The notes: generated from the letters alone by a model not told the origin. A stretch of DNA of 64,000 nt from Hydrurus foetidus (GCA_900617105.1 UYFQ01000001.1:4340001-4404000); one strand, 5' to 3'. Shown: positions 4,157 through 61,731, numbered from the stretch's first letter. A program made the numbers and translations.

Positions 4157-4927
4157 ATGACCCATAAAACTGCACTTTCAGTCAACGTTAACAAGGTTGC
4201 CTTGCTGCGCAACACGCGGCACTTGGGCATACCGGATGTGGTGCGAGCCGCTCGCATTTGCCTCGAGGCGGGTGCTAATGGCATCACGGTACATCCACGC
4301 CCCGATGAGCGTCATATCCGCAGTGCCGATGTGTTTGAAATTGCCGCGATGATGAAAGACTGGCCCGACCGTGAGTTCAATATCGAAGGCAATCCGTTTC
4401 AAAACCTGATAGGTTTTGTGCACGACCTGTCAGCGCGCGGCCTGCCGCTGCACCAGTGCACCTTTGTACCCGACAGTGAAGACCAGTTCACCAGTGACCA
4501 CGGCTGGGCTTTTCCGCAAGATGCCGATCGACTCAAGCCTTTGATCGATGAGGTTCATGCACGCCGAGTCCGAGTCAGTCTGTTCATGGACCCGATTCCT
4601 GAAGCCATGGCCGCAGCGAAAGCCGTCGGCGCTGACCGGGTTGAGTTCTATACCGAAAGTTATGCCAGCGCGTTCAATTCGTCCCAAAAATCAGAAGCGT
4701 TAAGCCGTTTTACCCAATCAGCACGTGCAGCAGCAGCTATTGATTTAGGAGTAAACGCAGGCCATGATTTGAACCGTGACAACCTCACCGAATTTTTAAA
4801 AGCCGTTCCCGGCGTGCTGGAAGTGTCGATTGGCCATGCGCTGGTGGCTGATGCGCTGGAGTTGGGTTACGCGCCAACGGTCAGAGATTATTTGCGCTGC
4901 ATAGACGAGGCGTTCGCAGGTAAATGA
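4157..4927 (+). CDS. pdxJ: Pyridoxine 5'-phosphate synthase
   Basis: [19 protein letters not shown] and EVSIGHA motifs. Confidence 0.96.
4710..4752 (-). repeat. REP-like copy embedded in pdxJ coding sequence
   Basis: CCCAATCAGCACGTGCAGCAGCAGCTATTGATTTAGGAGT aligns without gaps to the intergenic copies. Confidence 0.75.
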
Positions 4928-5319
4928 TCTTTGGAATAGGCACCGATATTTGCGATGTTCGCCGTATTCGCGCCAGCGTTGAACGCCATGGCGAACGATT
5001 TGCCAAAAAAATCTTGAGCGACGGCGAGATGAAAACCTGGCAAGAGCGCAGCGCCCGATGGCCTGACCGGGGCGTCAGCTTTCTGGCCACCCGCTTTTCA
5101 GCCAAAGAAGCCTTCAGCAAAGCCATCGGCATGGGCATGCGCATGCCCATGACGTGGCGCAACTGCGAGATTACAAAAGAGGCAAGTGGCAAACCTTGCA
5201 TCGTGCTGCATGGCGAGCTGAAGGCGTGGTTTGAAGCGCGCCAGCTCAGCGCCCATGTCAGCGTGACGGACGAAACCGATTACGCTGCCAGCTTTGTGGT
5301 CATCGAGCAAAAAACCTAA
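4924..5319 (+). CDS. acpS: Holo-ACP synthase
   Basis: GIGTDI and [11 protein letters not shown] motifs. Confidence 0.96.
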
Positions 5320-5349
5320 ATTTGGCCTCTTTTGAAGCATAAAATAGGT

Positions 5350-5396
5350 CTGTAGCCCAATAAATACGGGCGCAAGCAGCTCCTGAATTAATAGTA
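5350..5396 (-). repeat. REP-like family copy
   Basis: TAGCCCAATAAATACGGGCGCAAGCAGCT...ATAGT. Confidence 0.9.
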
Positions 5397-5411
5397 ATCA
5401 AATAAACCATC

Positions 5412-6470
5412 ATGACCCAACACGCTCCCCTCATCATCGACATCGCCGGTTTAACGCTGACCAAGGACGACCGCCGCCGCCTGAAAAACCCACTCACGGG
5501 CGGCATCATTTTGTTTGCCCGTAACTGGGAAAACCGCGCGCAGCTCACAGCCTTGTGCGCTGCGATCAAAGCCATTCGCAAAGACCTGCTGATTTGCGTT
5601 GACCATGAAGGTGGGCGCGTGCAGCGCTTTAAAACCGATGGCTTTACCCACCTGCCGCCAATGCGCGCCCTGGGCGAGTTGTGGGTTAAGGACCAGTTGG
5701 CAGCGACCAACGCCGCCACCGCTTGCGGCTACGTGCTGGGTGCAGAGTTGCGCAGCTGCGGCGTTGACTTCAGCTTCACGCCCGTTCTTGACCTCGATTT
5801 TGGTGAAAGCTCCGTCATCGGTGACCGCGCCTTCGGACGTGACCCGCGTGTTGTCACGCTGTTGGCCAAAAGCATGATGCACGGCCTGCTGCAAGCCGGC
5901 ATGGCGAATTGCGGCAAACACTTCCCCGGCCACGGTTTTGTCAAAGCCGATTCGCACCACGAGATTCCTGTCGATAAACGCAGCCTCAAAGCGATTTTGA
6001 CGGACGACGCTGCCCCGTATGAGTGGCTCAACACCACATTGACCAGCGTCATGCCCGCCCACGTGATTTACCCAAAAGTCGACAGCCGGCCAGCGGGCTT
6101 TTCAGAGCAATGGCTGACCTATATCTTGCGTGGGCAACTGGGCTTTGGCGGTGCGATTTTCAGCGACGACCTGAGCATGGCAGGGGCCCGCATCATTGAC
6201 GGCAAACAAGTGTCGTACACCCAGGCAGCAGTCACCGCATTGAATGCAGGCTGCGACATGGTGTTGCTGTGCAACCAGTCAGTAGATGGTGGCAAGGCGG
6301 TTGACGAGCTGCTGGACGGCATGGCCGAGGCGCTGCTCAAAGGCCGCTGGGAAGCGCTTGAATCCAGCGAGCTGCGCAGACTGGATTTACTGCCCACCAC
6401 CAAAGCGCACCATTGGGACGACCTGATGTTGCACCCGGCTTACATGCACGCAATGGGGTTAATTCCATGA
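5412..6470 (+). CDS. nagZ: Beta-N-acetylhexosaminidase (GH3)
   Basis: DHEGGRVQR, KHFPGHG and DSH motifs. Confidence 0.95.
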   Translation: MTQHAPLIIDIAGLTLTKDDRRRLKNPLTGGIILFARNWENRAQLTALCAAIKAIRKDLLICVDHEGGRVQRFKTDGFTHLPPMRALGELWVKDQLAATNAATACGYVLGAELRSCGVDFSFTPVLDLDFGESSVIGDRAFGRDPRVVTLLAKSMMHGLLQAGMANCGKHFPGHGFVKADSHHEIPVDKRSLKAILTDDAAPYEWLNTTLTSVMPAHVIYPKVDSRPAGFSEQWLTYILRGQLGFGGAIFSDDLSMAGARIIDGKQVSYTQAAVTALNAGCDMVLLCNQSVDGGKAVDELLDGMAEALLKGRWEALESSELRRLDLLPTTKAHHWDDLMLHPAYMHAMGLIP

Positions 6471-9431: not shown

Positions 9432-9470
9432 TGCTATCAATTCAGAAGCTGCTCGCGCCCGTATTGATTG
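9432..9470 (+). repeat. REP-like family copy
   Basis: TGCTATCAATTCAGAAGCTGCTCGCGCCCGTATTGATTG. Confidence 0.85.
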
Positions 9471-9559
9471 AACGAAACACTTGTTTGATGCTTATTTTGG
9501 CCTGTTTAAGACCGTTTTAAGGCCGAATCAATGCGCGTGCAACACTGACTCGGCACACA

Positions 9560-12518: not shown

Positions 12519-12568
12519 TGCTATTAATTAAATAGCTGCTCGCGCCCGTATTTATTGGCCTGAAGGCC
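12519..12568 (+). repeat. REP-like family copy
   Basis: TGCTATTAATTAAATAGCTGCTCGCGCCCGTATTTATTGGCCTGAAGGCC. Confidence 0.92.
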
Positions 12569-14774: not shown

Positions 14775-14869
14775 CCCTGCGCGGCAACGGGGTCAGATAC
14801 CGTCTTGCAATGCAACATTGCTCTGCCCGATATCCCCACATGACAAGACTCTCAAGTGCCGCCCAGCTC

Positions 14870-15080
14870 ACTATCAATAAAGTAGCTGCTTGCGCCCGTA
14901 TCCATTGGTCTAGGGCCATTTTTCGCACCTAGAAACGGCTCAAAAAGGCAGTTTTCAAGCAAACAAACGCTCTTTTGAGGCTACTTCAAGCCATTTTTAA
15001 GCCTCAAGAAGACATTTTTACCCATTAAATCAGCCTCTAGACCAATAAATACGTGCGCAAGAAGCTACGAAATAAATAGC
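14870..15080. repeat. REPIN-like element: two inverted REP copies plus spacer
   Basis: Inverted REP pair; spacer closely similar to that of 15871-16080. Confidence 0.9.
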
Positions 15081-15222
15081 ATCTTGAAGTCGCAAATTGC
15101 GACTTCAAGTGGATGAACTTTTGTTGGCTGAGCATGAACATGAAGCCCGGTTGAAACGCCTCCAAATTCTGGCCGACCAAAACTTGAAGGTCACATCTTC
15201 AAATTGATCGGCCATCAAATTA

Positions 15223-15238
15223 CTGTACATAAATACAG
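15223..15238. promoter_or_regulatory. LexA (SOS) box
   Basis: CTGTACATAAATACAG = CTGT-N8-ACAG, ~40 bp before the ORF6N gene. Confidence 0.85.
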
Positions 15239-15276
15239 TTATTTGATAAAATGCAACGCTAACTTGGGAGCGCAGC

Positions 15277-15822
15277 ATGAACCAATCGACAGATGCCATA
15301 TCCGCGCAGGCTTTGGCTGGGCGTATCGTGGTGATTCGCGGGCATAGGGTGTTGCTGGACTCGGATTTGGCTGAGTTGTATGAGGTAAAGACAAAGCGAT
15401 TCAATGAACAAGTCCGTCGCAACCTCAATCGCTTCCCGCCTGACTTCATGTTTAGCCTGACGCAGGCGGAGTTCGAAAGTTTGAGGTCGCAAATTGCGAC
15501 CTCAAACCGTGGCGGCCGCCGTTACCTGCCTATGGCCTTCACCGAGCATGGCGCCATCATGGCCGCTAGCGTTCTCAACTCAGACCGGGCAGTACAGATG
15601 AGCGTTTACGTGGTGCGTGCCTTTGTCCAGTTACGTACGATGCTGCTGGACCACAAGGCGCTGGCCGACAAGCTGGCCAGCCTGGAGCGGCGGGTGTCGC
15701 ATCATGACAATTCATTGGCTGAGGTGATTGAAGCCATTCGCGCGCTGATGGTGCAGCCCAAGCCCGCCAGTCGCCCGATTGGCTTTACGGCTGATGTGAC
15801 TGGGAAGCCTGCCAAGCGGTAA
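15277..15822 (+). CDS. ORF6N-domain DNA-binding protein
   Basis: RGHRVLLDSDLAELYEV, RNLNRFPPDFMF and AFTEHGA motifs. Confidence 0.9.
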   Translation: MNQSTDAISAQALAGRIVVIRGHRVLLDSDLAELYEVKTKRFNEQVRRNLNRFPPDFMFSLTQAEFESLRSQIATSNRGGRRYLPMAFTEHGAIMAASVLNSDRAVQMSVYVVRAFVQLRTMLLDHKALADKLASLERRVSHHDNSLAEVIEAIRALMVQPKPASRPIGFTADVTGKPAKR

Positions 15823-15870
15823 TTTTGCCTGCACGACGGACTTGGCTTGGCAGCGAGGTTGAGTAGCTTT

Positions 15871-16080
15871 ACTATTAATAAAGTAGCTGCTTACGCCCGT
15901 ATCCATTGGCCTGGAGCCACTTTTGGCACCTAAAAACGGCTCTAAAAAGCAGTTTCCAAGCAAACAAACGCTCTTTTGAAGCTAATTCAACCAATTTTTA
16001 CGCCCCAAGAAGGCGTTTTTAATCATCAAATCAGCCTCTAGAGCAATGAAAACGTGCGTGAGAAGCTATCAAAATAATAC
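15871..16080. repeat. REPIN-like element, direct repeat of 14870-15080
   Basis: Shared spacer segment CAAGCAAACAAACGCTCTTTTGA. Confidence 0.9.
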
Positions 16081-16213
16081 CGAATTGAAGCAATGAGAAG
16101 ACGTAAGTGATGCGGCGTTGGCGCTGATTGTGTATTTGGGCCAAGTCAAGTTAAATGGTCAAGCTCAGGGTTGATGGCTGGTGTGCAAAATCAGCCGAGC
16201 AGAAGGAAGCACC

Positions 16214-18891: not shown

Positions 18892-19017
18892 CAGCTGGCG
18901 ATGCAAGCTGCGGGCAGGCAGAGGGTGAGCGAGCGAAAAAACTGCAGGCAAAGCTACAAAAATGAGGTTTAAAAAAGTGTCACCTATCTTCTCAAAATAA
19001 CAATGCCGGGCGGATTC

Positions 19018-19060
19018 ACTATTAAAAAAATAGCTGTTCGCGCCTGTATTAATTGGGCTG
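19018..19060 (+). repeat. REP-like family copy
   Basis: ACTATTAAAAAAATAGCTGTTCGCGCCTGTATTAATTGGGCT. Confidence 0.85.
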
Positions 19061-19269
19061 GGTCAACCTGTCAGTCAAAGACAGCGCGCTGCAAACTGAG
19101 CTGCAGTCTGTGGCGATTCATGCGCCGATTCATGCGCCGAGAGAGGCTGCGTTTCTCGATGCGCTGGGGGATGAGCTTACTCGCATGACGTACTTTTTAA
19201 GCTTGCTGTCCCACTGACTGGTTTGCAAACCTGGCGCTGCCTGTTTTGGCCCACACCGGCACGGTGCGT

Positions 19270-22313: not shown

Positions 22314-22363
22314 TACTATTAATTTAGGAGCTGTTTGGCCCCGTATTTATTGGGTTATAGGCC
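22314..22363 (+). repeat. REP-like family copy
   Basis: TACTATTAATTTAGGAGCTG..CCCGTATTTATTGGGTTATAGGCC. Confidence 0.85.
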
Positions 22364-25639: not shown

Positions 25640-25641
25640 CC

Positions 25642-27020: not shown

Positions 27021-28819
27021 TGTGCGGCATATTTGGCTACTGGAGCCGTAGCCGCACGCCGCTGGGTGACGCCGCGCTGGAGACGATGGCGCAAAAGCTG
27101 GTGCATCGTGGGCCAGACGATGAGGGCATTTGGCACCAGCCCCAGCGTGGCGTGGGCATTGGCAACCGGCGGTTATCCATCATTGACATTGGCGGCGGGC
27201 ACCAGCCGTTTGTCAGCGACGATGGCCAGGTCGCCGTGGTGCAAAACGGCGAGATATTTAACTTCATTGAACTGGCCAACGAGCTGCGTGCGCAGGGCGT
27301 GCAACTCAAAACCGCATCAGACACCGAAGTGATTTTGCGGCTTTATGAGCGCGAGGGCATCGGCTTTGTCAGCAAACTGAACGGCATGTTTGCCATTGCA
27401 ATTGACGATGCACGCGAAGATGCCTTGTACCTGGTGCGCGACCGGATTGGCGTTAAGCCGCTTTGTGTGCTGGATGATGGCGAGCGCATGCTTTTTGCCT
27501 CAGAAATCAAGGCAATTCTGCCTGTAGCCGAATTAAATCGGGCGCGAGCAGCTATTGATTTAGTAGCGATTCACCACTACCTGACGTTTAACTACATTCC
27601 CGCGCCGTGGACGGTTTACGAGAACATCAAGCACGTGATGCCCGGCACGTGGACGAAATTTACCCGCAAGCCAGGCGCAGCGGGCGTGCAAACCCAGCGC
27701 TGGTGGAGCTTGGCCGACCAGCGCGAGCGTGACTTTGAATTTGACGATTGGTCAGCGCAGTTCATGTCGATTCTGGACGACGCCACACGCATCAGGCTGC
27801 GCGCTGATGTGCCATTTGGCGCATTTTTATCAGGCGGCGTAGACAGCAGCACGGTGGTGGGCCTAATGGCGCGACACGTTACCCGCCCGGTCAAAACATT
27901 TTGCATTGGCTTTGAAGACCCGCGCTATGACGAATCCGCTTTTGCCTCGCAGGCGGCGCAACGCTTTGGCTGTGACCACACGATGGAAGTCGCTGAGCTG
28001 AACATGCTCGCGTCGTGGCCCAAGGTGCTGCACCACCTAGACCAGCCGCACGGAGATGCGTCTTTTATGCCCACGCTTCGGGTGAGTGAGCTGGCAGCCA
28101 AGCACGTCAAGGTGGTGCTAACAGGTGATGGGGGTGATGAGCTGTTTGCAGGGTACGACAAATACGCAGCGTTTTTTGCAAGGCCTGACGGGCAAACCAT
28201 GCCGGCTGCTGATTTTCAGCGGCAGTATTTCGATTCAATCTCACTGTTTTCAACCGCCGCAAAAAACGCGCTGTACCAGCCACACGTGCGCAAGCAGCTC
28301 GCAGGCATCGACAGTTTTGAGCAGGCCGCCAAGCCTTGGTTTGATGAGGCGCAGCATTTCGACCGCGTTAATCAGGCACTGTATTTGGATATGCAGCTGC
28401 TGCTCAGCGGCAACAATTTAGTCAAACCCGACCGCATGGGCATGGCCGTCAGCATTGAGGCGCGCACGCCGTTTTTAGACTACCGCATGATGGAGTTTGC
28501 TTTCCAGTCGCGCGGTGCTACCAAGCTGTCGAGCCAAGGCGACAAAAAGCACTGGTTTAAAAAAGCCGCCGCGCCCTTGATTGGTGAGAATTTGGCGCAC
28601 CGCAAAAAGCAGATGTTTACCGTGCCGGTGGGTGACTGGTTTAAAGGTGCAAGTTACCCGTGGCTAAGGAATACGCTACAAAAAAGTGAGCTAATTACGC
28701 CTATATTTGTTGGGCTAGAGATCGATTTAATGCTTGAAAAGCACCGTACAGGCGCTGCCAACTACACCCGCGAGTTGCGGGCACTGGCGGCATTAGCGTT
28801 GTGGGGCGAAGCGCTATGA
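27020..28819 (+). CDS. asnB: Asparagine synthase-like amidotransferase (glycan modifying)
   Basis: MCGI start, HRGPD, LSGGVDSS and TGDGGDE motifs. Confidence 0.9.
   Translation: MCGIFGYWSRSRTPLGDAALETMAQKLVHRGPDDEGIWHQPQRGVGIGNRRLSIIDIGGGHQPFVSDDGQVAVVQNGEIFNFIELANELRAQGVQLKTASDTEVILRLYEREGIGFVSKLNGMFAIAIDDAREDALYLVRDRIGVKPLCVLDDGERMLFASEIKAILPVAELNRARAAIDLVAIHHYLTFNYIPAPWTVYENIKHVMPGTWTKFTRKPGAAGVQTQRWWSLADQRERDFEFDDWSAQFMSILDDATRIRLRADVPFGAFLSGGVDSSTVVGLMARHVTRPVKTFCIGFEDPRYDESAFASQAAQRFGCDHTMEVAELNMLASWPKVLHHLDQPHGDASFMPTLRVSELAAKHVKVVLTGDGGDELFAGYDKYAAFFARPDGQTMPAADFQRQYFDSISLFSTAAKNALYQPHVRKQLAGIDSFEQAAKPWFDEAQHFDRVNQALYLDMQLLLSGNNLVKPDRMGMAVSIEARTPFLDYRMMEFAFQSRGATKLSSQGDKKHWFKKAAAPLIGENLAHRKKQMFTVPVGDWFKGASYPWLRNTLQKSELITPIFVGLEIDLMLEKHRTGAANYTRELRALAALALWGEAL
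27520..27568 (-). repeat. REP-like copy embedded in asnB
   Basis: GCCTGTAGCCGAATTAAATCGGGCGCGAGCAGCTATTGATTTAGTAGCG. Confidence 0.9.
28674..28720 (+). repeat. Second REP-like copy embedded in asnB
   Basis: CGCTACAAAAAAGTGAGCTAATTACGCCTATATTTGTTGGGCTAGAG. Confidence 0.75.
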
Positions 28820-36117: not shown

Positions 36118-36154
36118 AAAGCTACTGAACAATAACCCTTTTGGCCGCCTCGAC

Positions 36155-40821: not shown

Positions 40822-40989
40822 GAACAGCGCTTTAAGGTGAGCGGGGCGGTTATGAAGTGTCTGAAATCATCTCACAACACGATTGACCTGTGGGTTTGGT
40901 CGGCTCTGCATGCGGTGAAGACTAAAGTTGGTTAGCTGATCCGAAATTGGCCATATCAGGGCAAAAATACGCCACTTAAGTGCTTTTTA

Positions 40990-41030
40990 CTCAATAAATA
41001 CGGGCGCGAGCAGCTACTAACTATATAGCG
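40990..41030 (-). repeat. REP-like family copy
   Basis: CAATAAATACGGGCGCGAGCAGCTACTAACTATATAGCG. Confidence 0.9.
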
Positions 41031-41915: not shown

Positions 41916-42014
41916 AAATAAAGTCCTTAAGGCAGTTCATCAACGCTGCATAGCTGGGGTGCAAATGCTGTTCAGGGGCTAAAAAAGGCTAAAAATACGG
42001 TGAATTCGAGCGTT

Positions 42015-42057
42015 CAGGCAACTAAAACGGGCGCGAGCAGCTCATATTTTAATAGCG
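42015..42057 (-). repeat. REP-like family copy
   Basis: ACGGGCGCGAGCAGCTCATATTTTAATAGCG. Confidence 0.85.
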
Positions 42058-43888: not shown

Positions 43889-44089
43889 TACTATATATTT
43901 AATAGCTGCTCGCGCCCGTATTTATTGGCCTGCGGAGATTTTCAGCACCTAAAAAGGACGATTTTTGAGTCAATTTAATCATTCCCACAGTGATTTGGGT
44001 CAGCCAACGGCTTAAAAATGCATATTTTTGGTGATTTTTAGGACTCGGGCCAATAAATACCGGTGTGATGAGCTACATAAATAGTAGCA
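43889..44089. repeat. REPIN-like element (inverted REP pair)
   Basis: Inverted pair; spacer resembles that of 47648-47858. Confidence 0.88.
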
Positions 44090-44224
44090 ATTTAGGACCT
44101 TGCCGCAGCGATTGAGGTCAGTTGAAGTGCTGGTATGACCGCCTGATGAGTGCGAATCTAGTTCTTGCTACAAAAGAATCTGTCGTGCAAAAGTCTAGTT
44201 TGCACTTCCCTGATATTTGTATTG

Positions 44225-44244
44225 TAATATCGCCTAAGATATTA
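44225..44244. promoter_or_regulatory. Putative TA operator palindrome
   Basis: TAATATC-GCCTAA-GATATTA immediately before the toxin ATG. Confidence 0.55.
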
Positions 44245-44247
44245 TTT

Positions 44248-44664
44248 ATGCTGCTGGTTTTAGACACTGACGTCATCGTAAGCGCCATGCGCAGCCCAAC
44301 AGGCGCATCTGCTGAGCTTTTGCGGCTGGTCAGGCAACGAAAGCTGTCGATGGGGGTTAGCGTTGCGCTGGCTTTGGAGTACGAGGCGGTTTGCCTGAGA
44401 GCCGAGCACGCGCGCGCTGCTGGCTTGACGCAGCAAGACGCGTTGATTTTTGTGGATGCGGTCGTGGCAATGGCCATGCCTGTTGCAGTTCATTACCGCT
44501 GGAGACCGCAACTGCGAGACCCGGCAGACGAGATGGTGCTGGAAGCTGCGGTCAATGCCAAAGCCGATGCCTTGTTGACATTTAATTTGCGTCACTTTCA
44601 GTCTGCAGCCCTTTCTTTTGGGTTGCAGGTTCAACGACCTGGTGAATTTTTAAGGAGCCTCTGA
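44248..44664 (+). CDS. PIN-family toxin
   Basis: VLDTDV, DPADEMVLEAA and TFNLRHF motifs. Confidence 0.88.
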   Translation: MLLVLDTDVIVSAMRSPTGASAELLRLVRQRKLSMGVSVALALEYEAVCLRAEHARAAGLTQQDALIFVDAVVAMAMPVAVHYRWRPQLRDPADEMVLEAAVNAKADALLTFNLRHFQSAALSFGLQVQRPGEFLRSL

Positions 44665-44909
44665 TGAGCGATGTAGCCACTTATCCCCTGCGCTTGCCGC
44701 GCTCCCTGAAGGCCGGTATTGAGCGCGTGAGCAAACGCGACGGCACCAGCATCAACCAGTTTGTAGCCATGGCGGCTGCTGAAAAGCTGGCCGCGCTGGA
44801 TGCAGAAGACTACTTTCGCAGCCGTGTTGCGCGAGCGGACCTGGCTGCGTTTGACCGCATCATGTCCCGTGCAGGCGGTGAACCGCCGCGTGAAGGGGAT
44901 GAGCGCTAA
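44664..44909 (+). CDS. RHH-type antitoxin
   Basis: YPLRLPRSL..SINQFV; coupled to the PIN gene. Confidence 0.85.
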   Translation: MSDVATYPLRLPRSLKAGIERVSKRDGTSINQFVAMAAAEKLAALDAEDYFRSRVARADLAAFDRIMSRAGGEPPREGDER

Positions 44910-44919
44910 GGTTTTGGTT

Positions 44920-44968
44920 TGCTATATTTTTAAGAGCTGATTGCGCATGGATTTATTGGCTTGCAGGC
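44920..44968 (+). repeat. REP-like family copy
   Basis: TGCTATATTTTTAAGAGCTGATTGCGCATGGATTTATTGGCTTGCAGGC. Confidence 0.8.
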
Positions 44969-45206
44969 TTATATGATGCTTGAAAAGATAATAAATGTTG
45001 CTTTGCAAGACCTGACCCCAAGCCCTATTGGGCAAGTGCGTGAATGTGGAATTGGTGGCGGCGTGACACCGCCTGATGTTCGATGGATGAACGGTAGGGG
45101 ATGCGATATTGAAGGACCCCTTTGTTTTGACTCCATTGTTTCGCGCTGCCTCAGCCTAGGCGCTCACTGACAATGGGTACTAACTCCTAAAAAATCAAAC
45201 ATCCAT

Positions 45207-45605
45207 ATGCGTTCCATCATCGTTCCTTTCGCCCTGCTGCTTTGTGGTGTTGCAGGCGCAGCAGACAATTCTGCGTTAATCCTTCAAATGTCGGAAAGTG
45301 AGCTAGCGGCCGAGATGAAAGCAGGGGTCAGCATATTTAACAAGGAACTTCCGATGCGGGTGAATGCCAGTACTGTTTTACAAAGTGTCTCGTACACTTT
45401 ATTCGACAAGGTTTACATGTACCGCTACGCGACAACCGATCCAATGGACAATAACGCGCAGCGAGCAGCAATAGTTAAACAGCAGTGTGCATCGCCCAAT
45501 CTGTCTGCCTTTATGAAGCGGGGCATAACGCTACGGAGTCTTTACTTCGGCCCCAACCAGAAAATGACGGACATCGAAGTGCGGATCATTGATTGCGCCA
45601 AGTAA
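45207..45605 (+). CDS. Hypothetical exported protein
   Basis: Signal peptide; 132 aa; no family recognised. Confidence 0.7.
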   Translation: MRSIIVPFALLLCGVAGAADNSALILQMSESELAAEMKAGVSIFNKELPMRVNASTVLQSVSYTLFDKVYMYRYATTDPMDNNAQRAAIVKQQCASPNLSAFMKRGITLRSLYFGPNQKMTDIEVRIIDCAK

Positions 45606-45741
45606 TCTCTACGAAAAGGCTTGAGCGTCGAGCACGTAGCCAGCTGTCGTCAAATGCTCGTCGACACTAGGCGAAATAAACGCCTATGTCCAGGTAGCAA
45701 AGAAGAAAGCCCCAAAAGATGACCTTTTTCGTAGCCTTGAA

Positions 45742-45927
45742 TTAAATGTCCTTCGACTCAGCAGTCGATTTTTTCTTTCCGCTTACAGCGAGCCGATAGG
45801 AAAAAAAGACGAGAGCGCAGCTAAGGGAGGCAAGGAAGAGTCCGGCGGGCGTTTGCAGCGTGCGAGCGTTGAACGGAAAGAAGCCAATGCCCAAGAGGAG
45901 AAGGATTAGAGCTCCGAAGATACGCAT
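45742..45927 (-). CDS. Small hypothetical two-TM protein
   Basis: Two hydrophobic segments, basic tail, AGAG RBS. Confidence 0.5.
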   Translation of the reverse strand: MRIFGALILLLLGIGFFPFNARTLQTPAGLFLASLSCALVFFSYRLAVSGKKKSTAESKDI

Positions 45928-46110
45928 ACTAACTCTCTATGTTGGGAATATTGGCAAAGTGTACTCCCGTACCGTCTGGCTGTGACTCGATTCCGAAGAC
46001 TACAGATCGCCTTGAGGCTGGATGTTGCTGTGTCAAGCAACATCCTTCTTTGTCATTAAATTTCTCCACGAAGAAATTCGGGGTCAAGGAGAGAAAACGG
46101 GGTCAGACTC

Positions 46111-47568
46111 CAATACTGTTCAGTTAGAAGTATTTTTAACTCGAATGACAGTTTGAATCAGCACATTCAAGGGCTCATCGCCTTTTCTCGAAGGATAGTA
46201 GCTGGTTCGTCTTTTGACCACCCTCGGGTTTCTTTTGCCTCGTGAACTGACAGATTTGGCGCGGGCTACGCAGTTGATCACCTCTGCATACCAAATTGCA
46301 TAGCGCTCAGGGGGGAACAGCCCCAGCATGGGGCAGCTTGCAGCGCACGATTTGAAGACTCTTTTTAAACGACAGCTCATCGGGATCAATGTCCTTTTGC
46401 AGCGCCGCCTCATGCATCAAGCGGCGCACCGCAAAGTGCGCCAGCCACAACCCATAGAACTCTTGCCTGACCAAGTCTGGCGTCTTGCTGCGAAGCACCA
46501 CCCTTGCACCCCGCAGATGAGTCTTCATCTCTTTGAGCGTCGTCTCAATCTCCCAGCGCTCGTGATACACCTGTGCAAGCTCGTGCGCAGTTGCGACTTC
46601 AGGATCGAGCAAACTTGTTACCAGCCTGTACAGCGGCTCGGCCTGGGGGTCGCCATCAATGAAGTACTCGACCACTCTGACAGGCAAGCTTTGCAAACTG
46701 GGGTCTTTGTTACCGCGGCTTGGATTTAAGTGCGACAGGTATGAGCCATCGGGTAGCGCTTGATCCACTGGCAGTATGTTGTTCTTTTTGGCTCGCCACA
46801 GCAACTGAGCGCCTGTCTGGCGCGCCTTTGCCCATGCTTTGTAGCCCAGAAAGTACCGGTCGGCTAGCAGCAGCATGTCGGGCTTTAGTTTGGGCAATAG
46901 CTTGTCAAATAAGGTGATCTCGCTGTCGGTATACGCGCCATGGGCTAATGCGAACATGACGTGCGTGCCGCCCTCTACCAATCCAGCAAAGCGCAGTTGC
47001 GCATAGCCTGCGACACCGACATTAGCGGTCGGGCCGCCAAAGGCCTCAATGTTGGCGCTTTCGTGGGCTAAGTCCAGTGTGCTGCCATCGACGCTGACCA
47101 GGCGCATTCCTTTGAACCAGGCACCCTTCGTGTGCGGCTGGGCTATCGGCATCAAGCACTCATTGGCCAGGCGCTCCATAACTTGCCAGCTCAGGCGGCT
47201 GCGCGCCTGGGACAGGGCTGATTTGGTGATTTCGCGCTTGATGGGTGAGCCTAGAAAGCTCATTGCTTCAAGGGTCAAACGCAGCACTTCTTCGTAAGCC
47301 ACGCCCATGTAAAGCCCGAGAGCCAAGACGTAGTAAACAACGCCATGGGCGGGCAAGTCACGCTGTCTTTGGGACTGCCTGCCAGTGTCTTGAAGTATTT
47401 GGTGAATCTTGGCCAGCGGGCAGACCTGAGCCAGCAGGCCGACGCTTAAGTAGTCTGCGATTCGTGTGCCCGTGGGTAGCACTGCTTTGGTTCTTGCCAT
47501 GAAGCCTCCAGTTGGTGATGCAACTGGAATACAAGTTTACTTCAAATTTTACTAACTGAACAGTATTG
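46111..47568 (-). mobile_element. IS4-family insertion sequence
   Basis: 17-bp terminal inverted repeats CAATACTGTTCAGTTAG / CTAACTGAACAGTATTG. Confidence 0.93.
46307..47500 (-). CDS. IS4-family DDE transposase
   Basis: VDGS, ADRYF and YHERWEIE..KEMK (YREK) motifs. Confidence 0.93.
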   Translation of the reverse strand: MARTKAVLPTGTRIADYLSVGLLAQVCPLAKIHQILQDTGRQSQRQRDLPAHGVVYYVLALGLYMGVAYEEVLRLTLEAMSFLGSPIKREITKSALSQARSRLSWQVMERLANECLMPIAQPHTKGAWFKGMRLVSVDGSTLDLAHESANIEAFGGPTANVGVAGYAQLRFAGLVEGGTHVMFALAHGAYTDSEITLFDKLLPKLKPDMLLLADRYFLGYKAWAKARQTGAQLLWRAKKNNILPVDQALPDGSYLSHLNPSRGNKDPSLQSLPVRVVEYFIDGDPQAEPLYRLVTSLLDPEVATAHELAQVYHERWEIETTLKEMKTHLRGARVVLRSKTPDLVRQEFYGLWLAHFAVRRLMHEAALQKDIDPDELSFKKSLQIVRCKLPHAGAVPP

Positions 47569-47647
47569 GGTCAGATACCGTCTTGCAAACAAACAATTCT
47601 TTGATCAACATCCGCCGCGTCACAGGAGCCACAAGTATCCTCAACTC

Positions 47648-47858
47648 ACTATCAATAAAGTAGCTGCTCGCGCACGAATCTATTTGCCTGGAGGCACTTT
47701 TCATACCTAAAAATGACGATTTTTGAGTCGTTTCGGGCATCCCCACGGCAATTTGAACCAGCCACAGCTCAAAAAAGCCTTTTTCAACCCGATTTCAGGT
47801 GTAATTTTGGCCTCTAGCCCAATGAATACGGGCGCAAGCAGCTATATAAGTAATAGCG
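47648..47858. repeat. REPIN-like element (inverted REP pair)
   Basis: ACTATCAATAAAGTAGCTGC ... GGGCGCAAGCAGCTATATAAGTAATAGCG. Confidence 0.9.
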
Positions 47859-47872
47859 ATTGAATCGCCAAC

Positions 47873-47965
47873 CACCTCAAGAATCCAGCGCCACCCGAAT
47901 CTCTGCCAGGAAGTCGTGCGCTACGCCAGCCACCTTGCCCCGCGGTGCATTTTCAATTTGCTGGA
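47873..47965 (-). pseudogene. Duplicated 3' end of trpA
   Basis: 84/93 identical to 48718-48810 by manual alignment. Confidence 0.93.
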
Positions 47966-48022
47966 GAGGAGTAAGGGGGGACGAGCAATGGGATGCATAT
48001 TCCAATTAGACGCAAGAACCAT

Positions 48023-48334
48023 TCATGCGGCACCATGCACAGCAAGCTCGCTCCAGGGCTGAATGCGTGAAATCACTTTACCCGCCGCATCTTCGGCGCA
48101 TTTCACGTCGTAATTGCTTTGCAGGTTTAACCAGAACTGATGCGAGGTGTTAAAAAACCGCGCCAGTCGCAAGGCGGTGTCAGCGCTAATCCCGCGCCTT
48201 TCCCGCACAATTTCGTTGATGCGGGCTGGGGTCACATTCAATGCCCGCGCCAGGGCGTTGCTTGACAATCCCAATGGCAGCATAAATTCTTCGCGTAGTT
48301 GCTCACCTGGGTGGATGGGAGGTAATTTTTTCAT
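48023..48334 (-). CDS. higA: HigA-family antitoxin
   Basis: IHPGE, ISADTALRLA and FWLNLQ motifs. Confidence 0.92.
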   Translation of the reverse strand: MKKLPPIHPGEQLREEFMLPLGLSSNALARALNVTPARINEIVRERRGISADTALRLARFFNTSHQFWLNLQSNYDVKCAEDAAGKVISRIQPWSELAVHGAA

Positions 48335-48345
48335 AGCTAATTCCT

Positions 48346-48624
48346 TCAGTGGTAATCAACAATCTCAACATTTTCAGGTCCACTAGTTGTCCAGACAAAG
48401 CACACGCGGAACTGATCATTGATGCGAATGCTGTGCTGCCCTTTTCGATTCCCGAGCAAGGCCTCCAATCGATTGCCTGGTGGAGAACCAAGATCATTGA
48501 GTTCGCCAGCAGCATCAAGCTGATCTAACTTTCGCCGCGCGACTGCTTCGATGTTCACCCAGCGAGCGACTCGCCTGCGCTGATACAGAGCCGACGTGTC
48601 ATTGCTGGCAAACGACTGAATCAT
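48346..48624 (-). CDS. higB: HigB/RelE-family toxin
   Basis: PPGNRLEAL, SIRINDQFRVCF and VDYH motifs. Confidence 0.92.
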   Translation of the reverse strand: MIQSFASNDTSALYQRRRVARWVNIEAVARRKLDQLDAAGELNDLGSPPGNRLEALLGNRKGQHSIRINDQFRVCFVWTTSGPENVEIVDYH

Positions 48625-48721
48625 CTTTGTATTGTATATCGGTCTTCGATATGGGGTAAGTCAATCTTAAAACAGATGACTTCCAGGCATCCTGTGAGCA
48701 GCTGTGTAAATTGCAGACACC

Positions 48722-49531
48722 TCAAGAATCCAGCGCCACCCGAATCTCCGCCAGGAACTCGTGCGCTACGCCCGCCACCTTGTCACGCGGCGCATTCTCA
48801 ATCAGCTGGATGATCTTGCTGCCTATCACCACCGCGTCGGCTACCTTGCCAACTGCTTTGGCTGTGGCGGCATCGCGTATGCCAAAACCTACGCCCACCG
48901 GTATGCTGACGTGCTGGCGGATTCTGGGCAGCATGGCCTCGACTGCGCCTGTGTCCAGGTTGCCTGCGCCGGTCACGCCTTTGAGCGACACGTAGTACAC
49001 GTAGCCGCTGGCCACGCGTGCCACCTGGGCCATGCGCTCGTCTGTGCTGGTGGGGGCCAGCAAGAAGATGAGGTCCATGTTGTGGGCGCGCAAACTGGCG
49101 GCAAAGGCTTCGCATTCTTCGGGCGGGTAGTCGACGATCAGCATGCCGTCTACGCCTGCGGTGGATGCGTGTTTGATGAAGCTGCCAGCGCCGTTTTTGA
49201 TCTCATAGCGCTCGACCGGGTTGGCGTAGCCCATCAGCACGATGGGGGTGCTTTTGTCTTGCGTGCGGAAGGCTGTGACCATGTCGAGCACCTTGGCCAG
49301 ACCAATGCCGAGGGCCAGCGCCTTTTCACCGGCTTTTTGAATCACCGGGCCGTCGGCGCTGGGGTCTGAAAACGGGATGCCGAGCTCAATCACGTCGGCC
49401 CCGGCGCTGACCATGCCGTGCATCAGGTCAGGGGTGACATCGGCATACGGAAAGCCAGCCATGACGTAGGGGATCAGCGCGGTTTTGTTTTGCGCTTTGA
49501 GCTTTGAGAGGGTGGTTTGAATTCGGGTCAT
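48722..49531 (-). CDS. trpA: Tryptophan synthase alpha
   Basis: [17 protein letters not shown] and VGFGI motifs. Confidence 0.97.
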
Positions 49532-50820
49532 TTTGCAAACTCAACAACATGCTCATTGCCCTTGACCGACTGGCCTTTGCAGCTCGGGCGGCAATAAAAA
49601 TCGGCGTTGCTCAAGTCAGCCACGGTGCCGATATCTTTGTCGCCGCGGCCTGACAGGTTGACCAAGATCGACTGGTCAGCCCGCATGGTTTTGGCCAGCT
49701 TCATGGCGTAGGCCACCGCGTGGGCGGATTCAAGCGCGGGGATGATGCCTTCGGTGCGGCAGGTGTAGTGAAACGCATCCAGCGCTTCCTTGTCGGTGAT
49801 GCCGACGTATTCAGCCCGGCCAATATCTTTTAAAAACGCGTGCTCGGGGCCGACGCCGGGGTAGTCCAGGCCGGCGCTGATGCTGTGCGTTTCAGTGACC
49901 TGGCCGTCGTCGTCTTGCAGCACGTAGGTGCGGTTGCCGTGCAGCACTCCGGGCAGGCCGCGTTGCAGCGATGCGGAATGTTTGCCGGTGTCCATGCCTT
50001 CGCCCGCAGCTTCAACGCCAATCAGGCGGGTGTTTTCATAAGCAATGTACGGGTGAAAAATACCCATCGCATTGCTGCCGCCGCCGACGCACGCAATCAC
50101 CGCATCAGGTTGTTTGCCGTTGTTCACGTTATTGGAAAGCGACGCAAGCATCGCTGGCATCTGTTCGATGCATTCGTTGCCAATCACGCTCTGAAAGTCG
50201 CGCACCATCATCGGGTACGGGTGCGGCCCGGCTACGGTGCCAATGATGTAGAAGGTGTTGTCTACATTGGCCACCCAGTCGCGCATGGCTTCATTCAGCG
50301 CGTCTTTTAATGTTTTGCTACCTGATTCGACCGGCACCACTGTTGCGCCCAGCAGCTTCATGCGGTACACGTTGGGGCTTTGGCGTTTGACGTCTTCACT
50401 GCCCATGTACACCAGACATTCCAGCCCATACCTGGCGCAAATCGTGGCGGTGGCTACGCCGTGCTGGCCTGCGCCCGTTTCTGCAATCACGCGCGGTTTG
50501 CCCATGCGTTTGGCCAGCATGGCCTGGCCGATGGTGTTGTTGATTTTGTGCGCGCCGGTGTGGTTCAGGTCTTCACGCTTGAGGTAAATCTGCGCGCCAC
50601 CTTGCTCTCGGCTCATGCGGGCGGCGTGGTAAATCGGGGAAGGGCGGCCTACAAAGTGTGCCAGCTCGTACTGGAATTCTTTTAAAAATTCAGGTTCGTG
50701 CTGGTATTTTGCGTAGGCCTCTTTTAGCTCAGTGAGCGCGTGGGTCAGGGTTTCAGATACAAAACTGCCGCCGTAAACGCCGAAGTGACCTTTAAGATCA
50801 GGTTGTTGGTACTCGTACAT
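49528..50820 (-). CDS. trpB: Tryptophan synthase beta
   Basis: HTGAHKINN and ETGAGQHG motifs. Confidence 0.97.
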
Positions 50821-51511
50821 TTGAAATCTCGCTTCTTGCAAATTGGTCATCGGCAGCACGGACGGCTGCTACGAATTGATGGATAAGGAGAGCGTTTTTG
50901 ATTCCCTTGGAAATCTCAACGCCCGAGCTCACATCGACAGCCAGCGTTTTACCGCGTGGCCGGACTTGCAAAATGCCATCGCCCACGTTTGCAGGTGTGA
51001 GTCCACCAGACAAAACGAGGTGAGCATTGACGCTTGGAGGAAGCAGTGACCAATTGAATGTTTTTCCGCCGCCACCAAAACCTTCGACATGCGCGTCTAA
51101 AAGTATGGCTTGAGCTTGTTTGGAATCTTCTACATATTTTACGAGATCGAAATCCAGTGGTGCGTTTGGGGTCTCTGCGTTGATGGGGATGCGTGCTGCC
51201 TTAATGAACGGGCGGGCTATTTGTAAGCACATTTCGGGTGTTTCATCACCGTGAAATTGCACTAAAGCGCCCTGAATACGGGCGCAGGCAGCTATTATTT
51301 CAGTAGCGGATGCATTGACGAACAACAATACTGGTGTGACGAATGGGGGAAGGCGGGCAGCTAATTCGGCCGCTCGCTCGGCACTGACGTAACGCGCGCT
51401 GGGCTCGTAAAGCACAAAGCCAACCGCATCAGCACCTGCGGCAACAGCGGCGTCAACGTCTTGTTCGCGGGTCAGGCCGCAGATTTTGATTCGGGTTCTT
51501 GCTTGGTTCAT
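50798..51511 (-). CDS. trpF: Phosphoribosylanthranilate isomerase
   Basis: IKICGL, QFHGDE and VDVSSGVE motifs. Confidence 0.96.
51261..51308 (-). repeat. REP-like copy embedded in trpF
   Basis: TGAATACGGGCGCAGGCAGCTATTATTTCAGTAGCG. Confidence 0.9.
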
Positions 51512-52308
51512 GGCAGCCAATCATATGACGCTGCCTTGGTTGGCAAGCCGTATTTTTCTTCGTAAACCGGGCCCAGAAAGTACAAACCATCAGGCGAAAA
51601 AGTCGGCGCCGCCGCATCACGCCGCCTCGCCGCCAGCACGCCGACTATCCACTCAGGCTTTTCAAAACCCTGGCCCACCGCCACCAGGCAGCCCATGATG
51701 TTGCGAATCATGTGATGCAAAAAGGCGTTGGCTTGGAATTCAAAGCGCCAGTAGGGCGAACCGGGTTTTTGCATGATGTCAATGCGTTGAATATTTTTGA
51801 CCGGCGACTTGGCCTGGCACTGCGCAGCGCGAAATGAGCTGAAGTCATGCTCACCCAGCAAATACGCCGCCGCTTCGCGCATTTTTTCACCATCCAATGG
51901 ACGATAAATCCAGCCAACCCGACTCGCTTCCACACTCGGCCGCACCGGTGATTCAAGCACCACATACGCATAGCGCCGGGCAATCGCGCTGCCGCGGGAA
52001 TGAAATTCATCAGGCACCACACGCGCCCATTGCACAGCAATATCAGGTGGTAAAAAAGCGTTGGTGCCGCGTACCCACGATGCGGTTTCGCGTTCAAGAG
52101 GCGTATCAAAATGCACCACCTGCATCAGGCCGTGAACACCGGCATCAGTGCGGCCGGCGCAGTTGACGCGAATCGCCTGCGTACTGAACTTGGCAAGCGC
52201 CAGCTCAAGCTTGTCTTGAATTGTGTTGCCCGAGAGCTGGCTTTGCCAGCCCTCGTAGGCGCTGCCGTTGTAACTTATGCCCAGCGCTAGTCTCAATACA
52301 CGGCTCAA
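51508..52308 (-). CDS. truA: tRNA pseudouridine(38-40) synthase
   Basis: AGRTDAGVH and FLHHMIR motifs. Confidence 0.96.
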   Translation of the reverse strand: MSRVLRLALGISYNGSAYEGWQSQLSGNTIQDKLELALAKFSTQAIRVNCAGRTDAGVHGLMQVVHFDTPLERETASWVRGTNAFLPPDIAVQWARVVPDEFHSRGSAIARRYAYVVLESPVRPSVEASRVGWIYRPLDGEKMREAAAYLLGEHDFSSFRAAQCQAKSPVKNIQRIDIMQKPGSPYWRFEFQANAFLHHMIRNIMGCLVAVGQGFEKPEWIVGVLAARRRDAAAPTFSPDGLYFLGPVYEEKYGLPTKAASYDWLP

Positions 52309-56564: not shown

Positions 56565-56713
56565 AATGGGCAGGTCTAGAAATTCAGGTTTTCGGGATGA
56601 AGTGCAAGGCGCACGGAGCTGAGCAACCGGAATGTGCTTGCAGCATATGAGGATTGCGAGCACCGCACAACGCAGCAATTCCCCCGAAAAATGAATTTAT
56701 AGATGTGCCCATT
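56565..56713. repeat. ~150-bp palindromic MITE-like element
   Basis: ~31-bp imperfect terminal inverted repeats (AATGGGCA..TCTA.AAATTCA..TTTTCGGG). Confidence 0.8.
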
Positions 56714-57890: not shown

Positions 57891-57904
57891 ATGGTCAGTA
57901 ACTC

Positions 57905-57950
57905 ACTATTATATTTATAGCTGCTTGCGCCCGTAATTATTTGGCTACAG
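57905..57950 (+). repeat. REP-like family copy
   Basis: ACTATTATATTTATAGCTGCTTGCGCCCGTAATTATTTGGCTACAG. Confidence 0.9.
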
Positions 57951-57988
57951 CATCATTTAACGGGTAAAAAGGGCTAAAAACGTCCAAT

Positions 57989-59031: not shown

Positions 59032-59042
59032 CGCCGAGCTCC

Positions 59043-59300
59043 TTAATTTTCTAATTCAGCCAGTTTGTACTTCACAACCAATTCCCTGACTTGTTTGACC
59101 TGATAAGGCTTTGCCATGCCGCTGACAGGCTGCAAGTTGATGATGTCAACAACATCGGCTCTTGTGCAAATGTGGTGCGAACCCTTGATGCGCACATTAA
59201 ACTCAAAATATTCGAGTAATTTGAGCAAGTCTGCAAAGCGAATGTTCTGGTCACCTCGACCAGAAAGTAAGCTGAGCAGTAGCTTTTGGAGTTGACTCAT
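59043..59300 (-). CDS. hicA: HicA-family toxin
   Basis: RIKGSHH and AKPYQVKQV motifs. Confidence 0.88.
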   Translation of the reverse strand: MSQLQKLLLSLLSGRGDQNIRFADLLKLLEYFEFNVRIKGSHHICTRADVVDIINLQPVSGMAKPYQVKQVRELVVKYKLAELEN

Positions 59301-59315
59301 GCGATGCAGCTCAAG

Positions 59316-60746
59316 TTAAACGAACCGACGCACGTCAACAAAATGCCCGTGCACAGCCGCAGCAGCCGCCATCGCAGGTGACACCAAATGCGTTCGCCCA
59401 CCCGCGCCCTGGCGGCCTTCAAAGTTGCGATTGCTTGTCGAAGCGCAGCGCTCGCCAGGCTCCAGCTTGTCGGCGTTCATGGCCAGGCACATGCTGCAGC
59501 CGGGTTCGCGCCACTCAAAGCCTGCGGCTTTAAAAATCACGTCCAGGCCTTCGCGCTCGGCTTGTTCTTTGACCAAACCTGAGCCGGGCACAACCAGTGC
59601 CAGTTTGATATTTTTAGCCACCTTTTGGCCGATTTTTTTGATCACAGCTGCAGCCTCGCGCATGTCTTCGATGCGGCTGTTGGTGCAGCTGCCGATGAAA
59701 ACTTTGTCGATGTACAAGTCGTTCAATGCTTTGCCGGGCTCCAGGCCCATGTACTTCAGAGCGCGCTCGATGGCATCGCGCTTGTTGGCGTCTTTTTCTT
59801 TGTCAGGGTCGGGCACGATGTCATTGATCGACAGCACCATCTCTGGGGATGTGCCCCAGGTGACTTGCGGCAACAGTTCGCTGGCGTCCAGCTCCACGGT
59901 TTTGTCAAATACCGCGCCAGCGTCCGACTGCAGCGTTGACCAGTATTTGACGGCCATGTCCCACTCAACCCCAGTGGGTGCCAGCAAACGGCCTTTGCAG
60001 TAGTCAATGGTTTTCTGGTCGACTGCCACCAGCCCAGCCCGCGCACCGGCTTCAATGGCCATGTTGCAAACCGTCATGCGGCCTTCCATGCTGAGTGCCC
60101 TGATGGCCGCGCCCGCAAACTCAATGGTGTAGCCCGTGCCGCCAGCCGTGCCAATTTTGCCGATGATGGCCAGTACGATGTCCTTGCCGGTGCAGCCTGC
60201 GGGCAACGTGCCCTCAACTTTGATGAGCAGGTTTTTGGCCTTCTTGGCCAGCAGTGTGTTGGTGGCCAGCACGTGCTCGACCTCACTGGTGCCGATGCCG
60301 TGCGCCAGCGCGCCAAACGCGCCGTGGGTAGACGTGTGCGAGTCGCCGCAAACAACAGTCATGCCCGGCAAAGTCGCGCCGTTTTCAGGCCCCATTACGT
60401 GCACGATACCCTGGCGCTTAGACATGAACGGGAAAAACGCCGCTGCGCCAAATTCTTTGATGTTCGCATCCAGTGTGGTGATTTGCTCTTTGCTGACCAG
60501 GTCAGTGATGCCGTCGTAACCCAGCTCCCGGCCGGTGGTGGGCGTGTTGTGGTCAGCCGTGGCCACGATGGAGCTGATGCGCCAGACTTTGCGTTTGGCT
60601 TCGCGAAGGCCTTCAAAGGCTTGCGGGCTGGTGACTTCATGCACCAGGTGGCGGTCAATGTACAAGATGGACGTGCCGTCTTCTTCGGTGTGAATGACGT
60701 GTTCATCCCAGATTTTGTCGTAGAGTGTCTTCGTTGTATTGGCCAT
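59316..60746 (-). CDS. leuC: Isopropylmalate isomerase large subunit
   Basis: [19 protein letters not shown] and GCSMC motifs. Confidence 0.97.
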
Positions 60747-60771
60747 GTTTTTCTTTCGGGAATAGCTGATT

Positions 60772-61731
60772 TTAAGTGTCTTGCGTGGCTTGGTGCTCGG
60801 CAGTCAGGTGCTCCACCAGCAGCCGAGCCGTGACCGGCAGCGTTGAAAAGTCCCGCGCCACCAAATTGATGGGCCGCGTGGCCCAGTCGTCCAGCAATTC
60901 AATCGATTCCAGCTCTCCCACGCCGTGCATCAGCTCAAAGGCGCGTTGCGGCATCACGCCCACACCCAAGCCGTTTTCAATCATGCGGCACATTGCGTCT
61001 AGCCCCGTGACGTGAATGCGCAGCTTGATGGTGCGACCGACCGCTGCAGCGGCCTGCTGCATGGCGATGTAAATTGAGCTGTTGGTGTGCAGGCCGACCA
61101 GGTCGTAATCTAATGACGCTTCAAAATATATAGTTGCTTGCGCACGTAGAACGTGGCCTTTGGGCACAATCAATACCAGTTTGTCGGTACGGTAGGGCAG
61201 GGTTTGCAAGTCTCCCACACCGCTCGCGGTGTTACGTATACCGTCTGTAATATTGCAAATCCCCAAATCAGCCGCACCCTCGGTCACCGCCCTCACCACC
61301 TCGGTGCTCAGGTGCTCTTCCAGGTCAATTTTCACCTCCGGGTGGGTGCGAATGAACGCGCCCAGGTCTTCAGGCAAAAACTGCACGATGGCGGAAATGC
61401 TGGCGTGCACGCGCACATGGCCATGCACGCCATCGGCGTATTCGCTCAGTTCGCCCTGCATTTTTTCAAGGCTGAACAGCACCGACCTGGCATGGTGCAG
61501 CAGGCTTTCGCCCGCAGGCGTCAAGCTCACACCGCGTGTGTGGCGGTAGAGCAGGGCGGTGCCCAAAGTCGCTTCAAGGTCACTGAGCCGCTTACTGACG
61601 GCCGACGCCGCTATAAATTCCCGCTCCGCCGCCTTGCCGATGCTGCCCAGCTCGCACACAGCCACAAAGAGCTGAAGCGAGGTCAGGTCGATGCGGCGGG
61701 CAAAGTTGCGTTCTGATGTTTTGGGAGTCAT
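60772..61731 (-). CDS. LysR-family regulator
   Basis: N-terminal HTH ([16 protein letters not shown]), LTPAGE. Confidence 0.93.
61117..61165 (+). repeat. REP-like copy embedded in the LysR gene
   Basis: CGCTTCAAAATATATAGTTGCTTGCGCACGTAGAACGTGGCCT. Confidence 0.7.

Follow-up and report, generated by a model that had tools for sequence, protein, structure and literature searches.

A long, palindrome-cored DNA motif dispersed in Comamonadaceae genomes, overlaid on genes and putatively acting as an uptake-type signal

Among described systems, the uptake signal sequences (USS) of Pasteurellaceae and the DNA uptake sequences (DUS) of Neisseriaceae come closest to the motif reported here. We studied it in a window, that is, the whole analysed stretch of 64,000 nucleotides deposited under Hydrurus foetidus (GCA_900617105.1 UYFQ01000001.1:4340001-4404000), where it is dispersed between genes and also stands, in frame, inside pdxJ, trpF, an asparagine-synthase-family gene (asnB) and a LysR regulator gene. 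The window DNA appears to belong to a Polaromonas-like member of the Comamonadaceae, because its LeuB is 95% identical to a Polaromonas record and its PdxJ is 99% identical to that of the relative G001. The motif is real and not ordinary, and its function is putative. The evidence supports the five copies in window genes being in-place substitutions, essentially length-neutral, and the motif family as a whole shows both overwriting and length gain.

According to PMC2817400, PMC2397512 and PMC3458573, USS and DUS are, like the motif, present in hundreds to thousands of dispersed, degenerate copies on both strands with a third or more in genes, and they share with it a position at poorly conserved residues, the lack of a copy-paste signature and the occurrence of lineage variants; their spacing is more even than random, as that of the motif may be. 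PMC2817400 describes the known uptake sequences as non-palindromic, 9-30 bp long and present at about 0.8-0.9 per kb, and in its account they are known only in Pasteurellaceae and Neisseria; the H. influenzae signal is presented in PMC3458573 as a core with helically phased tracts on one side. Unlike these sequences, the motif is two to six times longer, has a palindromic core, is less dense and patchy within genera, forms inverted pairs of about 212 bp instead of terminator hairpins, and has some copies with length gain. Sequence-selective uptake is reported for one member of the Comamonadaceae, Verminephrobacter (PMC4212676).

Other dispersed repeats share fewer of these properties. Systems of repetitive extragenic palindromes (REP), the REP/REPIN-RAYT systems, resemble the motif in their high copy number, mostly intergenic location, patchy distribution and some inverted pairs of fixed spacing, but the motif has neither stem covariation nor identical copies, its single copies dominate and the presence of RAYT genes is unlinked to it. 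From miniature inverted-repeat transposable elements it differs by the dominance of single copies, by pairs without target-site duplication and by the lack of near-identical dispersed copies. The Rickettsia palindromic elements and intragenic REPs, as described in PMC10969869 and PMC3733652, also place a dispersed repeat in frame in housekeeping proteins, and some motif copies in relatives sit in inserted loops as the Rickettsia elements do; unlike the latter, however, the five window copies leave protein length as it was, the motif forms no stable hairpin, its copies are all distinct, and partial matches grade continuously across orthologues. The strain list of PMC3733652 files P. naphthalenivorans under CGTC elements, which the motif might conceivably match. 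The BRE of Betaproteobacteria, given in PMC3110155 as about 90 bp long, 69% GC, often tandem and in at most 29 copies, come from the same bacterial family and have some copies in genes, but by that description they do not fit the motif. VeiPR1, a Verminephrobacter repeat that is named in PMC3975124 and makes up 2.3% of that genome, may be related to the motif.

Motif copies inside genes

A weight matrix of 50 columns, with 18 intergenic window copies as its only training set, gave 23 window matches above a cut-off of 5 bits, of which 18 are intergenic and exactly five are coding (Table 1). An earlier note on this DNA had called for such a scan against codon-shuffled controls; the coding matches score 17-54 bits, whereas 200 codon shuffles of the window genes gave a mean of 0.005 matches above 5 bits and none above 10 bits. 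The five in-gene stretches and peptides which that note listed were confirmed, with open frames and intact genes that match pdxJ, asparagine synthase, trpF and a LysR regulator. Its claim that both orientations and several frames are used holds for the orientations, but only three of the six frames occur in the window: one common antisense frame in pdxJ, the first asnB site and lysR, and two sense frames in trpF and the second asnB site. In the same way, the family of about 48 bp that it described is real but longer than it supposed, with phased AT-rich tracts that reach at least 85 bp.

None of the five copies requires added residues. There is no insertion or gap at the pdxJ site in 31 of 31 genus orthologues, nor at the trpF site in 30 of 30 (both counts exclude the unpublished genome G032, on which alone none of our claims depends); local length is the same in 120 of 120 protein homologues at the lysR site and in 120 of 120 at the second asnB site. 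At the first asnB site length is equal in 106 of 120, and in the remaining 14 the sequence immediately upstream has 4 or 9 extra residues. Alignments with solved PdxJ, TrpF and LysR structures have no gaps at the motif, while the first asnB site is 3 residues longer than the distant structure 7ylz, which does not cover the second. These alignments bear out the proposal that the repeat replaces residues rather than adding them. That a native helix may be what is replaced also agrees with an alignment-based model of TrpF (mean predicted local distance difference test score 88), in which the copy coincides with a native helix and the strand that follows it (residues in Table 1). The asnB and lysR sites are within the most variable 0.5-4% of 17-residue windows.

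Genome-scale statistics come from 904 kb of the relative G031 (genome 3.6 Mb), where genes were called with our own gene caller, which recovered 58 of the 59 window stops. This sequence holds 197 copies, 69 of them inside genes and 55 of those 69 in two alanine-coding frames; most copies are intergenic, near gene ends. Homologues for a length comparison, which may include G032 rows, were available for 16 of the 69, and eight of these copies (12-45 bits) are length-neutral. The contrast drawn earlier with Rickettsia insertions thus stands for the window copies, but not for the whole family, in which the other eight G031 copies and a LysR orthologue show length gain. HemD of G031 has 20 to 21 more codons than three of four homologues, an insert that varies in its residues but has the same length in 118 of 120 homologues; ComEC of G031 has up to 21 more, and the LysR orthologue of locus L061 gains 20 codons beside the same motif core. 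Intergenic spacers also tend to be longer with the motif (acpS-nagZ, 60-106 bp versus 12-90 bp without it). Some copies therefore probably begin as templated patches or insertions. The strongest coding copy of G031 lies in a variable loop of comEC (L326:13017), and eight of 16 comEC genes examined carry the motif there.

Codon choice at the sites was compared with synonymous reshuffling, keeping the amino acids fixed, for pdxJ, trpF and both asnB sites. In the window z was 4.8 for pdxJ, 3.5 for trpF, and 5.5 and 2.3 for asnB; many relatives, with proteins 76-80% identical, gave values of 3-6, and in genomes with at most 3 copies per Mb the seven rows lay between -1.6 and 0.6. The site score rises with genome-wide motif density (Spearman 0.70, n=31; 0.65, n=30; 0.96 and 0.81, n=8 each; G032 excluded), and for trpF it does so across genera (0.65, n=35). 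Coding copies are mostly lost where the genome has lost the motif family. In the site trees, three separate branches have the motif in lysR and many have it in trpF. The 3' half of the motif has lineage dialects; judged by eye on small samples, the coding copies of a genome use the same dialect as its intergenic ones.

Parsimony on a two-gene tree places gains on three successive nodes and makes the losses abrupt; because deep support is weak and recombination probable, it gives no firm call between stepwise and block change. Synonymous divergence was 0.26 inside versus 0.45 outside the core, and 0.28 versus 0.39, in comparisons that are partly circular because only motif-positive genomes were included, and that we do not use as evidence. 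We were unable to find interpretable presence/absence polymorphism in four contig sets. A Rhodoferax genome without core-pattern matches still has a motif-like patch in trpF (L013), which is likely a relic of a lost system.

Table 1. Motif copies and tail-to-tail pairs in the window (positions counted from its first nucleotide)
Feature	Position	Strand	Remarks
Coding copy in pdxJ (4157-4927 +)	4704..4753	-	antisense, partial, 17.1 bits
Coding copy 1 in asnB (asparagine-synthase family; 27017-28819 +)	27519..27568	-	antisense, near-complete, 53.9 bits
Coding copy 2 in asnB (27017-28819 +)	28674..28723	+	sense, 35.6 bits
Coding copy in trpF (50798-51520 -)	51259..51308	-	sense, 24.1 bits; modelled helix 72-81, most of strand 86-89
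Coding copy in LysR gene (60772-61731 -)	61117..61166	+	antisense, partial, 16.8 bits
Intergenic copy, acpS-nagZ	5347..5396	-	copy at same site in about half of 20 aligned relatives
Intergenic copy	9432..9481	+	matrix match
Intergenic copy	12519..12568	+	matrix match
Tail-to-tail pair, 213 bp	14869..15081	.	matrix matches
Tail-to-tail pair, 213 bp	15870..16082	.	84% identical to pair at 14869
Intergenic copy	19017..19066	+	matrix match
Intergenic copy	22314..22363	+	matrix match
Intergenic copy	40981..41030	-	matrix match
Intergenic copy	42008..42057	-	matrix match
Tail-to-tail pair, 201 bp	43889..44089	.	matrix matches
Intergenic copy	44920..44969	+	matrix match
Tail-to-tail pair, 212 bp	47647..47858	.	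matrix matches
Intergenic copy, leuB-leuD	57904..57953	+	copy at same site in most aligned relatives
Intergenic copy	61897..61946	-	matrix match

Architecture and distribution of the motif

The motif is about 65 bp long. It has a 17-bp palindromic core, RCTMY followed by seven AT-rich bases and RKAGC, then a conserved linker and a second pair of GC-rich boxes with its centre at a distance of 24 bp; the AT-rich tracts lie on one side of the core with a period of 10.5 bp, and the first 50 columns hold about 57 bits. In G031, the length of the core spacer is constant in 185 of 189 copies and that of the second spacer in 137 of 138. Left and right half-sites come from one small set, each independently of the other, and their pairing is that of chance (43 versus 42.1, and 58 versus 61.0), and TpA steps are depleted both in the core (35 versus 54 expected) and in the tail (42 versus 83 expected). 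All 195 G031 copies with full context are distinct. Their nearest-neighbour identity over 50 bp has a median of 0.86, versus 0.85-0.86 in Markov simulations, with a small excess over 70 bp, and linkage between motif columns decays over about 25 bp. Judged by its sequence features, the motif is probably a protein's recognition signal in double-stranded DNA; such a protein is suggested by the fixed geometry, the independent half-sites and the phasing.

Copies also form tail-to-tail pairs with unrelated interiors, of 211-213 bp in total in 11 of 14 and of 202, 170 and 346 bp in the rest, in pooled counts that may include G032 rows. The pairs are mainly limited to two hotspot families, and single copies dominate. 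An Rfam search with the motif gave no match; neither did a blastn search of plasmids and phages with one 66-bp copy, a weak search given so short and degenerate a query.

Abundance was scanned with a 26-letter pattern allowing two mismatches, with the reversed pattern as control. The 40 genomes of the genus have 0-724 matches, and 0-6 with the reversed pattern. G001 has 298 and 269 on the two strands versus 0 reversed, and G031 has 353 and 351 versus 1; the near-complete congeners G028 and G002 have 2 each. Of 50 named genomes, 16 have 54-640 matches, among them Polaromonas, Rhodoferax, Variovorax, Acidovorax, Comamonas, Ca. Aalborgicola and others, and the remaining ones have at most 15. A core-only pattern gave the same distribution and no match in four of four genomes of other families. 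The motif thus looks like a Comamonadaceae signal, patchy, with 0 to more than 700 copies per genome. For G182, an apparent strand run among the matches listed is probably an effect of the listing; a scan of the first 200 kb was balanced.

In IMG/VR, we found 74 matching stretches, more than half of them in called genes such as those for terminase, primase and repressors. The motif recurs near the 3' end of small phage repressor-like genes (L339, L345, L346, L349, L355, L356, L363, L365 and L395), and phage terminase, primase and portal genes also have it in frame.

Possible functions

We consider it most likely, with a probability of about 0.45, that the motif favours the uptake of motif-bearing DNA in natural transformation. 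Biased uptake together with homologous recombination would fix any change that improves a site, and partial matches would then build up in genes wherever the protein tolerates them, a build-up of the kind described for uptake sequences in Haemophilus and Neisseria. The length gains of about 60 bp would be explained if, as is likely for some copies, the first step is a short patch templated by another copy. We prefer this reading because it best joins the in-place overlay, the graded matches, the apparently even spacing, the dialects and the phage copies. Two traits of USS and DUS are seen, namely over-representation on both strands, in the G001 and G031 counts, and an indel-free placement in genes where residues are poorly conserved, which holds for the five window sites but for only eight of 16 copies in G031. 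The spacing of G031 copies is more even than random placement would give (coefficient of variation 0.73 versus 0.87, p=0.007, 153 gaps), to which the regular spacing of intergenic regions may contribute. PilY1 is present in 38 of 43 motif-rich versus 21 of 37 motif-poor genomes (24 of 29 versus one of 11 in the genus, 14 of 14 versus 20 of 26 outside it). More tentatively, the Comamonadaceae may have a third, independently evolved uptake signal, several times longer and with a palindromic core, which recodes helices of essential enzymes, seeds loops of about 20 residues, rewrites resident phage genes, and is switched on and off between sister species.

Several observations weigh against a role in uptake. 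The motif is not short and non-palindromic as USS and DUS are (17-bp palindromic core, about 57 bits in 50 bp), and no dedicated receptor was found among the competence and pilus genes examined; because of these two points we liken the motif to USS and DUS in its possible mode of action and do not class it with them. Its density of 0.2-0.36 copies per kb is below that of known uptake sequences. ComEC (78 of 80 genomes), PilT-family ATPases (78 of 80) and a ComP-domain pilin (five of five) occur with or without the motif. With 20 of 26 motif-poor genomes outside the genus having PilY1 (Fisher p=0.07) and the within-genus link resting on kin, this gene is only a lead, because related genomes do not count as independent cases and many of the assemblies have gaps in gene content. 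The depletion in low-GC sequence is only mild (0.88 versus 1.2-1.4 copies per 5 kb across GC quintiles). The motif-poor genome G035 retains the motif codons of pdxJ, and several motif-rich genomes lack a given site; the lysR site score has a rho of 0.20 with density across genera (n=19), and independent contrasts lower the correlation to r 0.45-0.48, with rank tests not significant. Finally, the G031 copies in segments longer than in some homologues, by up to about 21 codons, score 44-77 bits: the strongest coding copies tend towards lengthened segments, and point mutation alone is no explanation for them.

Minor-pilin and FimT genes were also compared. In the motif-free genomes G002 and G028 (L407/L408), an inverted fimT-pilVWXE operon without PilY1 lies between nrdR and ribD, with only one PilT-family gene, whereas three motif-rich genomes have PilY1, in a comparison of five genomes, which are too few for a conclusion. 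The FimT C-termini of six genomes, inspected for a Legionella FimT motif, gave no clear split.

A doubtful alternative is that the motif is the binding or wrapping site of a cytoplasmic chromosome-organising protein, for instance a dimer of dimers on the two boxes that bends the phased tail, and that selection for site density writes it over tolerant codons. The twofold-symmetric core with independent half-sites, the second box at 24 bp and the 10.5-bp phasing favour such a site, and the constant total length of most tail-to-tail pairs suggests helical geometry; the core may also fit the T-N11-A pattern of LysR boxes. However, selection on each of hundreds of sites would then need the strength to alter residues of essential enzymes, yet congeners with near-complete genomes do without the family. 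Copies occur in phage genes too, and no candidate protein was identified. A polar replication signal is not supported, as the strand counts (42 versus 68) show a weak bias for which one contig is responsible. Of the two mechanisms proposed in the earlier note, a protein-binding site is nevertheless the better supported, by half-sites, TpA depletion and phasing, whereas conversion-like spreading has less in its favour.

Such spreading enters into another reading, which we also regard as unlikely: a selfish, non-autonomous element propagated by a copying enzyme or by ectopic short-patch recombination, which brings an insertion of about 60 bp to loops and spacers, or at times a same-length replacement, its likeness to a protein site reflecting the mobilising enzyme. 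Length gains near motif size in HemD, ComEC and the L061 LysR, the longer motif-bearing spacers, the genome-wide dialect shifts, the patchy distribution, the duplicated pairs and the column linkage over about 25 bp all point this way. SPDIR is reported to make templated microindels of 3-100 bp and to be boosted by transformation (10.1101/2023.11.22.568220), and PMC2397512 reports that some new Neisseria DUS arise by recombination. But none of the 195 copies are identical, nearest neighbours are no closer than simulated, and the four window pairs show no target-site duplication. Orthologous sites keep their copies from one species or genus to another, the HemD insert keeps a constant length while its residues vary, and neutral copying would not deplete TpA steps. 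RAYT was rejected as the cognate enzyme: ten of 11 RAYT loci carry a different repeat, and RAYT genes are found in 75 of 80 genomes, motif or no motif. On the same grounds the label REP, given earlier to the family, was dropped.

A hairpin, in RNA or in a single strand (a terminator, a stabiliser or a stem of REP type), with incidental coding copies is very improbable and already largely excluded, since the two short palindromes and the position of most copies near gene ends are set against no covariation between arms, no common structure in the folding of 6 strands (z +0.45 to -2.14), no Rfam match and the use of both orientations in genes.

In the freely searchable full-text literature, which leaves subscription papers and theses outside its scope, we found no description of the motif. 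If the uptake reading is true, views on how common self-DNA recognition is would change with a third and far longer system, found in bacteria that abound in fresh water and soil, and the motif would be a concrete candidate behind the sequence-selective uptake of Verminephrobacter. A chromosome-wrapping site or a length-neutral copying element would likewise be undescribed in the literature searched. Near relatives with and without the motif (G036 versus G029 and G008) allow the reshaping of proteins by a signal at the DNA level to be followed as a natural experiment, and the motif explains hypervariable, rare-codon patches in Comamonadaceae proteins that are open to misreading as positive selection.

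Other repeats and cassettes

The window contains a polysaccharide biosynthesis cluster at 24116-40090, with neuABCD-like and other sugar genes, in which motif copies occur only in asnB. This asnB is found in nine of 151 genus genomes, yet has two copies.

A second repeat, starting GGGGTCAG, is found at window positions 14788, 46098 and 47567, and also at loci L141-L146 and L452-L456. It is the repeat of the local RAYTs, distinct from the motif, and flanks a conserved RAYT gene beside the glutamate synthase gene as well as accessory RAYTs. The window IS4 sits between two pieces of a GGGGTCAG-type repeat. The exception among the 11 RAYT loci is L140:1350-2281 (G220), whose RAYT belongs to another subfamily; two motif copies of like orientation flank it, and no GGGGTCAG repeat was detected there.

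A separate dispersed repeat of about 143 bp at 56567-56710 has several 83-88% matches in G031, G113 and G001 and no Rfam match. A 93-bp direct repeat, 90% identical (47873-47965 and 48718-48810), flanks a HigA antitoxin gene and a neighbouring open reading frame (ORF). The tail-to-tail pairs of about 212 bp (14788-16082 and 43889-48620) border small variable genes, namely ORF6N, a PIN toxin pair, the HigA antitoxin with a 92-aa ORF, and IS4. Relatives have different genes at the same two pair-bordered hotspots, and therefore the pairs may act as cassette boundaries.

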